IMG/VR virus record: IMGVR_UViG_2671180524_000022
Length of the DNA stretch: 5,076 nucleotides
From: a virus
Lineage: Duplodnaviria > Heunggongvirae > Uroviricota > Caudoviricetes
Direction: 5' to 3' (one strand)
Below the pieces are notes generated by a model. It worked only from the letters and a program-made list of their open reading frames with translations, ran no database searches and had not been told where the DNA came from. How positions within the stretch are numbered: the stretch's first letter is position 1; every line of letters begins with the position of its first letter. The position numbers and the translations under genes are program-made. Shown piece by piece: positions 754-4,140 of this stretch.

Positions 754-1494
754 TCACATACCCTGACGTCCAACGTTTGACCGCCAGCTCTCCCAGTTAA
801 AATTCACCCAACGACCACCATTCATGGTCATACGGTCCATCACCCGATCTCCGAGGAGTGTGCTCATCGCTGCGTGATTCAGGTTCGTCAGCATTCCGAC
901 ACTACGCATCGAAGCCGTTCTGCGGTCGACTATCTGGTTCAGCGTGACCTGCTCGTTGCGCGTATCCCGCTGCATGCCAATTTCATCAAGGACCAGAAGG
1001 TCAACTCCACAAAGCTCCTGTAAAAATTTTTCCCCGGACTGGCCGTTGTCGTAGCCGTCATGCAACACGCTCATGACATCGGACACGGTGACGATAATCA
1101 CGCTTCTCCCCTTCGCCATCAGCCGATTGCCAATCGCTGCTGCCAGGTGATTTTTACCGGTACCAGGTTTACCGCTGAACACGAAGTTTGTACATCCGGT
1201 CATCAATTCATCGGCAATGGATTTCGCCTGGCTCAGAGCATGGCGCTGACCGTCGTTCTGCACCCGGTAGTTCCCGAATGAGCACTTCCTGTGAAGCGGC
1301 TGGATGCCCGCACGGTTCAGGATTTTTTCAACCCGCACCTGATGATTCAGGCGGTTAATCTCCTCGCTGCGTTTTCGTCCTTCAGCAAGTTGCCATTCCC
1401 GCCACTCCTCCACCGTCCGGTACGGTGGAACCGCCCCCTGTGGTGCAAGTCTGCGAATACGTTCAAGAACCCCAACTGCCGCAATGTTTTTCAT
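754..1494 (-). CDS. dnaC: DnaC-family AAA+ helicase loader (prophage replication protein, lambda P functional analogue; Rac YdaV-like)
   Basis: 246-aa ORF. Walker A FSGKPGTGKNHLAAAIG, Walker B DLLVLDEIG, and near-colinear similarity to E. coli DnaC as I recall it (PLHxxCSFxNYRV, NQIVDRR, GMLTNxN, LGxRVMDRM). Minus-strand ATG at 1494 with GGGGG about 10 nt upstream; lies 6 nt downstream of the initiator stop. Confidence 0.93.
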   Translation of the reverse strand: MKNIAAVGVLERIRRLAPQGAVPPYRTVEEWREWQLAEGRKRSEEINRLNHQVRVEKILNRAGIQPLHRKCSFGNYRVQNDGQRHALSQAKSIADELMTGCTNFVFSGKPGTGKNHLAAAIGNRLMAKGRSVIIVTVSDVMSVLHDGYDNGQSGEKFLQELCGVDLLVLDEIGMQRDTRNEQVTLNQIVDRRTASMRSVGMLTNLNHAAMSTLLGDRVMDRMTMNGGRWVNFNWESWRSNVGRQGM

Positions 1495-1500
1495 GACACG

Positions 1501-2463
1501 TCACCCCCTGAATCCCGGCGGTATTTCAGTGTCCGGTTCAGAAATGTGATTCACGCAACGCTGCGCGGGCGAACGCCCCAGGCGGATAACCAGTTCATCC
1601 CATTTTTCCCGGAGTTTTGCCGGACTCATGATGTTTTTTACCCAGAACGAATCCCGCTGGAGACGCCCAAACATTTCACAAATTTGTCTGTGAGTTCTGC
1701 CATCCAGCATCCGCATTGTCCGCACGTCATTGGCCCATGCAGTCCAGTTGGGTTCTTTCGGTCTCGTGATCTCGCCATCATCGCTGGCCGCCTGCTCGTA
1801 AAGACTCACGATTCGTCCCCAGATCCACTGTGCGCACACCAAATCTTCCTGACTTCCCCACTGGCGTTTTTTCGCACTGAACACAACCGCGTCAGGGTGT
1901 CGGGTTAAAAAATTCTGTTCAGCCGTCTGCGGGTCCGGTTGCGAAGCGTCCGGACAAGAAGATCTTTTATCTGACGGATCAGGTTTTAATACTGACGGAT
2001 CGGGGTCAATCATCGCCCCCCTAATCGGCAGTTTGTTATCAACAGTTGATCCATCAAAATTTGACGGGTCAACCGTTGAGGGGGCAATATTTGACGGGTC
2101 AACTGTTAACGGGTCATTTTTTGCCGGGCTAATTTTTCTTTTCGGTTTATATGACTCACGCGCCGCCGCAGCAGCTGCTTCGAGTTTTTCCACATTAAGC
2201 CGATAGATATTGCTTACATTACGCCCACCGACCTTACGCTCTTCCTTCGTCAGCCAGCCCTCTTTCGCCAGTTCTGCAATAGCCGATTTCACTGTGGATT
2301 CACTTCTTGCACCGATCTGACGCCGGATAGTTTCAATGGCAGGCCATGACACGCCCTCGTCATTGCTGTAGTCTGCAAGACGGGCCATAACCGCCACCCT
2401 GGATAAGATCATGCCGGTGAAGGCGCACCCTTCCCAGACAAGACCATGAAGCTTGCTGCTCAT
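1501..2463 (-). CDS. Phage replication initiator (lambda O analogue): N-terminal winged-helix DNA-binding domain, Pro/Asp/Ser-rich repeat linker, C-terminal domain
   Basis: 325-aa ORF in the track (GTG at 2478). ATG at 2463-2461 preceded by GGGG is the more likely start (MSSKLHGLVWEG...). The N-terminus (SWPAIETIRRQIGARSESTVKSAIAELAKEGWL) is HTH/winged-helix-like. It sits directly upstream of the helicase loader. The linker is encoded by the iteron-like DNA repeats. Confidence 0.8.
   Translation of the reverse strand: MSSKLHGLVWEGCAFTGMILSRVAVMARLADYSNDEGVSWPAIETIRRQIGARSESTVKSAIAELAKEGWLTKEERKVGGRNVSNIYRLNVEKLEAAAAAARESYKPKRKISPAKNDPLTVDPSNIAPSTVDPSNFDGSTVDNKLPIRGAMIDPDPSVLKPDPSDKRSSCPDASQPDPQTAEQNFLTRHPDAVVFSAKKRQWGSQEDLVCAQWIWGRIVSLYEQAASDDGEITRPKEPNWTAWANDVRTMRMLDGRTHRQICEMFGRLQRDSFWVKNIMSPAKLREKWDELVIRLGRSPAQRCVNHISEPDTEIPPGFRG
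1969..2120. repeat. Iteron-like direct repeats and nested palindromes inside the initiator gene, with an adjacent AT-rich tract (2116-2156); candidate prophage replication origin
   Basis: CTGACGGATC at 1971-1980 and 1992-2001 (period 21). ATTTGACGGGTCAAC at 2059-2073 and 2089-2103 (period 30). CGGGGTCAAT at 2001-2010 and ACGGGTCAT at 2109-2117. Palindromes ATCAACAGTTGAT (2038-2050) and TTGATCCATCAA (2046-2057), plus TTGAC-GG-GTCAA within each 15-mer. T-rich stretch attttttgccgggctaatttttcttttcggtttatat follows. Confidence 0.5.
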
Positions 2464-3185: not shown

Positions 3186-3272
3186 CTCGGTTTAGTGTTT
3201 TTTTGCGAGTTTAGTGTTTAATAAACCATTAAGTCAAGTATTTGCTTGTTTAGTGATTACTAAAGATAATTA
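3186..3272. promoter_or_regulatory. Divergent promoter/operator region (OR-like) between the repressor and cro-like genes
   Basis: Direct repeats GTTTAGTGTTT (3190-3200, 3209-3219) and GTTTAGTGATT (3248-3258). Palindromes GTTTAATAAAC (3216-3226) and TTTAGTGATTACTAAA (3249-3264). Plus-strand promoter candidate: -35 TTGCTT 3242-3247, 17-bp spacer, -10 GATAAT 3265-3270. Minus-strand promoter candidate: -35 TTGACT (rc of 3232-3237), 18-bp spacer, -10 TAAACT (rc of 3208-3213). Confidence 0.5.
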
Positions 3273-3861: not shown

Positions 3862-4140
3862 ATGTTACCCGTGTTATGGCTTGAAAGCGCAGATACCGAC
3901 CTAGATGATATAACTAGTTATATTGCTCGTTTCGACATAGATGCGGCTGAACGCTTATGGCAGCGATTAAGGGGTTGTGTGCTGCCGTTATCCGAACATC
4001 CGTATTTATACCCACCAAGCGACAGAGTACCTGGCTTGCGTGAGATTGTAGCCCACCCTAACTATATAATTCTATACCGCGTAACAACATCAAGCGTTGA
4101 AGTAGTAAACGTGATCCACGCAAGACGCCAGTTTCCCTAA
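3862..4140 (+). CDS. parE: ParE/RelE-superfamily toxin (92 aa)
   Basis: ATG at 3862 in the same frame as track ORF 3766..4140. Product MLPVLWLESADTDLDDITSYIARFDIDAAERLWQRLRGCVLPLSEHPYLYPPSDRVPGLREIVAHPNYIILYRVTTSSVEVVNVIHARRQFP shows the typical ParE pattern (N-terminal helices, C-terminal ...ILYRV...VEVVNVIHARR). Translationally coupled to the upstream antitoxin. Confidence 0.85.
   Translation: MLPVLWLESADTDLDDITSYIARFDIDAAERLWQRLRGCVLPLSEHPYLYPPSDRVPGLREIVAHPNYIILYRVTTSSVEVVNVIHARRQFP

Follow-up and report, generated by a model that had tools for sequence, protein, structure and literature searches.

Within a 5,076-nucleotide stretch of Caudoviricetes DNA (IMG/VR virus record IMGVR_UViG_2671180524_000022, below called the window) the gene for an O-like replication initiator carries six abutting head-to-tail 15-bp units, and this candidate iteron array is probably, at a rough probability of 0.75, the initiator-binding part of a prophage replication origin built on the plan of the lambda origin (ori-lambda), together with an adjacent block that contains GATC sites and is moderately AT-rich. 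With the same assurance the iterons are predicted to be the sites for the winged-helix N-domain of the protein encoded by the array-bearing gene itself. Annotation and Pfam matches identify the window as the immunity and replication region of CP-933P, a cryptic lambdoid, Rac-like prophage of E. coli O157:H7. An iteron origin inside an O-type gene is a textbook principle and the expected biology for such a gene, and what would be new here is an origin of this kind for an initiator with an N-domain of the HTH_36 family. An intragenic origin bound by the gene's own product had been proposed in a first-pass annotation made from the sequence alone.

The repeat array and its conservation

Each 15-bp unit is made of an 11-bp palindromic core, TCAA-N3-TTGA, and a 4-bp G/C spacer, and in the gene frame (minus strand) the six units are translated as PAKND-PLTVD-PSNIA-PSTVD-PSNFD-GSTVD (coordinates are in Table 1). 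The overlapping TTGA/TCAA palindromes described in the first-pass annotation are there in clear excess, the exact palindrome TCAANNNTTGA occurring four times in the window against 0.15 expected, with none of 200 shuffles reaching four, and three of the four copies (at 2039, 2054 and 2069) keep the 15-bp spacing. All the repeat strings that it had named are found where it had put them. Exactly two copies of ATTTGACGGGTCAAC lie 30 bp apart at 2059-2073 and 2089-2103, with any copy at all appearing in none of 200 shuffles, and a pair of CTGACGGATC lies 21 bp apart at 1971-1980 and 1992-2001, although this pair is no part of the same repeat and belongs to a separate GATC block at 1955-2001. Tandem Repeats Finder reports the array both at period 15 (2039-2116, 5.2 copies, score 65, consensus TCAACAGTTGACGGG) and at period 30 (2039-2107, score 82), the higher-scoring super-period going with an alternation of TCAA-A(T/A)(A/T)-TTGA and TCAA-CNG-TTGA centres from unit to unit; Edwardsiella arrays have a 45-bp super-period in place of the 30-bp one. 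The fourth exact TCAANNNTTGA (as TCAAGCGTTGA) is at 4090-4100, inside parE2 and 2 kb off the array, and is probably there by chance. When the 13.2 kb of the prophage was scanned for the core with one mismatch allowed, nine sites were found against 7.4 expected, five of them being those of the array; it is in the array alone that the exact core is enriched.

The relatives collected for the same N-domain are 80 genome loci, spread over many genera of Enterobacterales, along with 80 near-identical viral contigs and 5 phage genomes, and every collected relative has a 15-bp-period array at the same place, in strict register and of 3 to 10 units. Subgroup A comprises 10 loci, the E. coli locus of the window together with prophages of Mixta, Erwinia, Edwardsiella and Morganella (N-domain identity 62-66%), and its contiguous arrays, cut in register and without unit selection, yielded 39 unique units in a total of 60; the arrays of subgroup B yielded 181 unique ones. 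Over the 39 unique units of subgroup A three columns are the richest in information: codon 2 has A at its third position in 39/39 (2.0 bits), codon 3 has A at its first in 38/39 and codon 4 has T at its third in 37/39. The conserved nucleotides read (T/C)CAA-N3-TTGA, while the residues at these same codons vary (S, P, L or A at codon 2; T, N, I, K or M at codon 3; I, V, N or F at codon 4). The spacer is CCC or GGG, hence the Pro/Gly alternation of the peptide, and its third position drifts. The N-domain of these 10 genes served as a control: in its four-fold codons for invariant amino acids the third position holds 0.54 bits and is invariant in 0 of 18. In subgroup B the unit is NCN TCA AAA TCT GAC, with the first serine written TCA in 117 of 123 cases and the second TCT in 113 of 126, as against 15% TCA and 9% TCT among the 1544 serine codons of these genes outside the linker.

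Read from these alignments, the repeats are conserved as DNA and not as protein, since the conservation is out of codon phase and is strongest at two synonymous third positions. Such code-blind conservation on synonymous positions is the pattern predicted by a DNA-binding site, and from it the repeats are very probably initiator binding sites. A mere tracking of amino-acid conservation by the repeats, which the first-pass annotation had held out as the outcome that would tell against an origin, is not what the comparison across related prophages (also proposed there) gives, the nucleotide core being kept in 85 relatives, with the two third positions at 39/39 and 37/39 in subgroup A, where the residues vary. 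It is accordingly very unlikely that the array is only a low-complexity linker of D-P-S-T/N-V-like pentapeptides, generated by slippage, that owes its DNA likeness to recent duplication or gene conversion and has no DNA function. The region does encode a disordered linker (predicted local distance difference test score, pLDDT, below 50), arrays differ in copy number by entire 15-bp and 45-bp units and Edwardsiella has recent duplications, all of which speak for such a linker; however the nucleotide core stays constant across genera where the peptide changes, the N-domains of the same genes have diverged at synonymous sites, and in subgroup B two serine positions have two different fixed codons. 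The drift at the spacer third position means, further, that homogenisation has not been uniform over the unit.

A constraint on secondary structure, be it an mRNA hairpin modulating translation of the initiator or a hairpin or cruciform of single-stranded DNA, for example a primosome-assembly-type signal, seems highly improbable as the source of the pattern. The array RNA folds at -35 kcal/mol (z = -7.3 against shuffles) and several relatives reach z between -3 and -7.8, but such foldability is automatic because the units are tandem near-palindromes, and the folds differ by locus, with two loci that do not beat shuffles (z = -0.7 and -1.7). Moreover each unit keeps one consensus with no compensatory drift, and Rfam gives no match in the window.

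Because the array is palindromic its antisense strand encodes look-alike peptides (STVDPSKFDGSTVEG...), and these are found in a plus-strand open reading frame of 57 amino acids at 2033-2206. An overlapping antisense gene at the array was considered and rejected, as this frame is open in subgroup A and interrupted in subgroup B and so is not a conserved gene. A gene in the +1 sense frame was also set aside, that frame being open everywhere, but the palindromic periodicity is not what an overlapping gene predicts.

The initiator, the core types and the flanking block

That the array-bearing gene encodes an O-like initiator, as the first-pass annotation had it, is well sustained. PHROG 391 ('replication initiation O-like') spans the whole protein (E 7e-115), and in translated searches of phage genomes (tblastn) residues 153-300 align to the C-terminal part of lambda O (34.5% identity, E 5e-18), the C-domain aligns also to 933W O and phi80 gp15, and the N-terminal 150 residues give no alignment to lambda O. 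Current annotation of the family says only 'helix-turn-helix domain-containing protein'. The sole Pfam match in the initiator is HTH_36 at residues 25-71, with none to Rep_3 or RepA families, and a sequence search of solved structures matched in the DnaT-like tail of the protein and nowhere else. In an AlphaFold2 model built with 34 homologues, residues 1-104 form a winged helix of the helix-helix-helix-hairpin kind (pLDDT 74-89), residues 109-173 fall below 50, the C-domain at 178-297 is helical (80-93) and the tail is disordered. Fold matches to the N-domain are generic winged-helix DNA binders, all of them weak with E above 1e-3. Taking the segment of pLDDT below 50 as the disordered linker, it is exactly this linker that the repeats and the AT block encode.

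The type of core goes with the type of N-domain. When a match need have no more than the outer TCA...TGA, core positions 4 and 8, which are symmetric, are A/T in 39 of 42 cases in subgroup A, G/C in 19 of 25 in subgroup C (a third and more distant N-domain subgroup, with the perfect palindrome TCAGAWTCTGA) and mixed in subgroup B. A core change on both halves of the palindrome that tracks the N-domain fits, at the level of these alignments, a dimeric protein and its site, and shared descent could yield the same association. Across the 85 relatives N-domain, array and AT block form one unit of inheritance, and the C-domain type and the loader are exchanged, the segment after ...PSCP being a lambda-O-like domain, a TIGR02220 'phage conserved C-terminal' domain or something else; modular inheritance of this kind is a known trait of lambdoid phages.

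The likely unwinding element is the 1955-2001 block, and it is placed there because of a conserved A+T peak, of the least stable 40-mers and of an alignment with the lambda AT-rich tract relative to the homologous C-domain. When 82 non-redundant relatives are aligned on GATCCGTCAGTA, A+T peaks at 72% from +10 to +39 between flanks of 37-38%, and in the window the AT-richest part of the block is 1962-1991 (70% A+T), with the least stable 40-mers of 1850-2250 starting at 1953-1957. Both flanks of the array are modestly AT-rich, their best 40-mers having 67.5% A+T as against 65% for the 95th percentile of the window and 80% for the lambda tract. This junction block, which lies beyond the proximal seventh site (Table 1), is nearly invariant across genera and reads GGGGATCCGTCAGTA, then about 10 A/T-rich bases, then GATCC(G/A)TCAGATAAAA. 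Because the alignment was anchored on a pattern in the first four codons of the GATCCGTCAGTA block, their third-position value is in part imposed; in the codons after them, which are the unbiased part, the third position holds about 1.2 bits, the value for the N-domain being 0.58. The T-rich stretch at 2116-2156, which had been put forward as the AT-rich element of the origin, is present with the composition given in Table 1 but is probably not a conserved origin part, its equivalent not being AT-rich in subgroup-A relatives (for example AAGGCGAAAAAGCGCAGTACACGCACC), and the conserved block lies on the C-domain-coding side of the array, as it does in lambda.

It is most improbable that the conserved DNA marks no more than a module boundary, kept alike by repeated homologous recombination between mosaic lambdoid genomes and not by selection. 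The C-domain type does switch just downstream of the conserved ...CCTTCTTGTCCGG and the GGGGATCCGTCAGTAAAT block is nearly invariant across genera, so such exchange could explain the junction block, but not a periodic array with palindromic conserved columns, and the core difference between N-domain subgroups would be left unexplained.

Three GATC sites, at 1961, 1977 and 1998, lie inside the AT-rich block and span 41 bp. A GATC pair inside GATCCGTCAG, with the two sites 21-24 bp apart, is conserved across genera, and a gene for a Dam-type adenine methylase is found just downstream of the initiator in about 40 of 85 related loci (L011-L090, about 2.5 kb downstream). The GATC pair and the methylase genes together suggest that the origin could be under methylation or SeqA control.

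A protein site with some role other than at an origin, such as autoregulation or a roadblock, a partition or centromere-like function, or the binding of a host factor, is unlikely. DNA-level constraint taken alone is silent on the binder and on the purpose, the weak fold matches of the N-domain include centromere-binding winged helices (TubR, pNOB8) as well as MarR/PadR regulators, and the AT-rich element is weak. However the gene encodes an O-like initiator whose C-domain is of the lambda-O type and whose partner is a helicase loader, the array stands at the ori-lambda position and is always followed by a conserved AT-rich island, and no other gene consistently travels with it. As to host factors, the window has no IHF consensus, and the search for DnaA boxes in it gave a single relaxed match at 2186-2194, which is within chance (0.46 expected) and whose codons differ in subgroup B.

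Several points weigh against initiator-bound iterons of an ori-lambda type origin. DNA-level constraint, as seen in these alignments, proves a nucleic-acid function, and identifies neither the binding protein nor an origin role. In a literature search no experimental binding or origin activity was found for any family member, and HTH_36 initiators are recorded in Shiga toxin (Stx) phages with no origin or iterons described for them. The AT-rich element is weak, at 62-70% A+T here and 72% on average in relatives compared with 80% in lambda, and the abutting 15-bp spacing is unlike the 20-24 bp of lambda. Array units and cross-species loci are non-independent samples, and the counts therefore overstate the number of independent events. 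In the window the distal core is degenerate and two others depart from the palindrome by one mismatch, which leaves three perfect ones, and a proximal seventh site, for which relatives have a full site at the same position (sense GGGTCAATGGTTGACCCC), is half lost. The prophage is itself cryptic, and for this reason its copy of the origin may be partly decayed, despite intact initiator and loader frames. Among E. coli alleles the third unit of O157:H7 reads ATTGCC (DPSNIA, plus strand GCAATATTTGA) where the commonest allele is intact with ATTGAC (DPSNID, TCAATATTTGA), and other alleles are without one 15-bp unit (L163, strain AC-5) or without one 21-bp GATCCGTCAG GATC repeat (L096).

The loader, the DnaT-like tail and the prophage setting

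The gene that follows the initiator encodes a protein 49% identical to E. coli DnaC over its full length (E 2e-87), and the first-pass annotation was thus correct, for the window, in seeing a DnaC-type loader in place of lambda P. The protein scores 500 bits with NCBIfam PRK12377 (cut-off 389), fails the DnaC equivalog model (309 bits, cut-off 357) and matches Pfam IstB_IS21 too. A loader of this type is, on the relatives compared, not a property of the origin type: a lambda-P-like gene follows 6 of the 7 other subgroup-A initiators examined (8 of 85 relatives overall), and most subgroup-B initiators have no loader gene nearby. The DnaC-like protein of the window and lambda P share an MKNIAA start, and there may be a recombination joint where the loader gene begins.

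The C-terminus of the initiator reads ...QRCVNHISEPDTEIPPGFRG and matches the final 20 residues of E. coli DnaT at 70% identity (E 1e-7), and the same tail ends YdaU of the K-12 Rac prophage, an otherwise unrelated DUF1376 protein. Initiators of at least 33 of the 85 relatives end exactly in such a tail, whatever the type of their C-domain, and all 8 initiators that are followed by a lambda-P-like gene are without it and have a lambda-O-like ending. From this distribution the tail looks like a portable peptide recruiting DnaC-DnaB. How DnaT recruits DnaB and DnaC is stated as unknown (PMC13377028, 2026), and if the tail is the recruiting element it would bear on that recruitment in replication restart.

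A pathway for the origin can be proposed along these lines. A transcript from the PR-like promoter would make the initiator and cross the origin, and dimers of the initiator would then bind the 11-bp palindromes TCAA-N3-TTGA, the 15-bp spacing putting neighbours on nearly opposite faces of the helix. The nucleoprotein complex so formed would destabilise the AT-rich block at about 1955-2001, and the lambda-O-like C-domain with the DnaT-like tail may bring the DnaC-type loader, with host DnaB, onto the opened DNA. Binding, unwinding, recruitment of the loader and any firing of the cryptic copy would all be parts of this proposal.

Table 1. Positions and strands of the features discussed, in window coordinates
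Feature	Position	Strand	Remark
O-like replication initiator gene	1501-2463	-	320 amino acids; RefSeq coding sequence with identical coordinates
Winged-helix N-domain	2152-2463	-	codons 1-104
Disordered linker	1945-2139	-	codons 109-173
Helical C-domain	1573-1932	-	codons 178-297; homologous to lambda O C-domain
DnaT-like tail	1504-1563	-	codons 301-320
Candidate iteron array	2038-2127	-	codons 113-142; six abutting head-to-tail 15-bp units
Core	2039-2049		plus-strand letters TCAACAGTTGA
Core	2054-2064		plus-strand letters TCAAAATTTGA
Core	2069-2079		plus-strand letters TCAACCGTTGA
Core	2084-2094		plus-strand letters GCAATATTTGA
Core	2099-2109		plus-strand letters TCAACTGTTAA
Core	2114-2124		plus-strand letters TCATTTTTTGC
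Proximal seventh site	2006-2016	-	TCAATCATCGC; 33 bp beyond array; one half-site intact
GATC-containing, moderately AT-rich block	1955-2001	-	candidate DNA-unwinding element; conserved in relatives
T-rich stretch	2116-2156		68% A+T, T-rich on plus strand; overlaps degenerate unit 1
DnaC-type helicase loader gene (YdaV-like paralogue)	754-1494	-	immediately downstream of initiator; annotated 'ATP-binding protein'
PR-like promoter	3208-3237	-	consensus match only, TTGACT-18-TAAACT
YdaS/Cro-like gene		-	annotation and Pfam
YdaT/CII-like gene		-	annotation and Pfam
paaR2, paaA2, parE2		+	annotation and Pfam

The 1.2 kb around the array is 100% identical to E. coli O157:H7 chromosomes, and 2259 of 5426 complete E. 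coli genomes have sequence related to the array region. A transcript started at the PR-like promoter would cross ydaS, ydaT, the initiator gene with its array and the loader gene, much as PR crosses ori-lambda, and the layout agrees with that of PR933P described for CP-933P (PMC8630535). The CP-933P locus was studied by Jurenas et al., who noted replication-initiation genes downstream of ydaT and did not mention an origin (PMC8630535). A run of 49 N at 2728-2776 of the window masks part of the ydaT/cII-like gene. The identical O157:H7 chromosome (L001 from 7329) has about 80 nt at this place, so that window coordinates beyond the right end of the mask understate the real spacing by about 31 nt.

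Among phages with complete genome sequences the initiator type is present in, for example, PhiR49_1 and Klebsiella phage 1 LV-2017. One circular E. coli 'plasmid' record of 15,977 bp, NZ_CP148542.1 (L172), consists only of a lambdoid early and late-regulatory region with no other typed replicon, and has an initiator of this type (92.5% identity) along with the DnaC paralogue and the same array. It would fit a lambda-dv-like replicon and may be an assembly or sequencing artefact, and it is not counted as evidence because its initiator and ydaT genes are frameshifted.

What the array offers is a precise and testable candidate origin for a very common initiator family, with members in viable phages, in many prophages of Enterobacterales and in some replication types of Stx phages, the HTH_36 family being recorded in several 'Eru' types of these (PMC8951638). 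The array is a clean case of dual coding, too, as a DNA-binding specificity would dictate the sequence of a disordered linker. Knowledge of origin and specificity would help the typing of prophage replication modules, whose type in Stx phages has been linked to virulence (PMC8951638), and knowledge of the origin would help in predicting incompatibility or replication interference among co-resident prophages and in building lambda-dv-like vectors. Whether the window is the first recognised case of a widespread and undescribed class of Enterobacterales phage and prophage origins, with abutting 11-bp palindromic iterons (15-bp period) that dictate a pentapeptide-repeat linker, an unwinding block with a conserved pair of Dam (GATC) sites and a portable IPxGFRG tail recruiting DnaC-DnaB, is a more speculative matter, a class so defined in all its parts being possible and somewhat doubtful.

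Comparison with known systems

The Rac prophage of K-12 (ydaS-ydaT-ydaU-ydaV; oriJ) has the same gene order as the window, with a YdaS/Cro-like gene, a YdaT/CII-like gene, an initiator and a DnaC paralogue, and both initiators end in the DnaT-like ...PD(S/T)xIPPGFRG. An assignment of the locus to the Rac oriJ type was nevertheless rejected, since YdaU (DUF1376) resembles the window initiator in a 19-residue tail only and Tandem Repeats Finder found no 15-bp array in K-12 ydaU, and the window is therefore without an oriJ-type initiator.

With the iteron plasmid origins (RepA, pi, TrfA) the window shares a winged-helix initiator, direct repeats expected to be bound by it and, next to these, an AT-rich block, here a candidate for unwinding. 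In plasmids the iterons are mostly about 17-22 bp long with a phase of about two helical turns, and they are found beside DnaA boxes and not within the rep gene, whereas the sites in the window are 15-bp abutting palindromes inside the gene. A plasmid origin of the Rep class was also turned down, the initiator matching HTH_36 and neither Rep_3 nor RepA, the array being intragenic with a 15-bp period and the one DnaA box being within chance.

The E. coli dnaT-dnaC operon is alike in that a protein ending in ...SEPDxxIPPGFRG is immediately followed by a loader of the DnaC family, the tail being 70% identical over 20 residues and the loader 49% over its full length. The likeness to DnaT is one of the tail only, as DnaT has neither a winged-helix origin-binding domain nor a lambda-O-like domain, and it acts in PriA-dependent restart and not at an origin.

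In lambdoid origins iterons and an AT-rich tract lie in the middle of gene O (PMC7466680). With lambda as a control, four iterons were found at O codons 117-146 and directly after them an 80% A+T tract, and the lambda-like arrangement proposed for the window in the first-pass annotation is upheld by an array that occupies codons 113-142. As in ori-lambda and the origins of the Stx phages 933W and P27, the putative origin is in the linker segment of the initiator gene between N-domain and C-domain, is made of direct repeats with internal dyad symmetry, has on the C-domain side a tract that is A-rich on the sense strand, though much weaker than that of lambda, and goes with a homologous C-domain (34.5%, E 5e-18) and with a PR-like promoter from which it would be transcribed. 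Copy number also varies among relatives in both, lambda having 4 iterons and Stx phages 6. The differences are that the N-domain of the window initiator is of another family (HTH_36) and does not align to the lambda O N-terminus, that its abutting 15-bp units have an 11-bp core where lambda iterons are about 19 bp and spaced, that its less AT-rich tract (about 62-70% against 80%) has a conserved GATC pair, and that its partner is a DnaC paralogue and not P, the initiator having a DnaT-like tail that lambda O is without.

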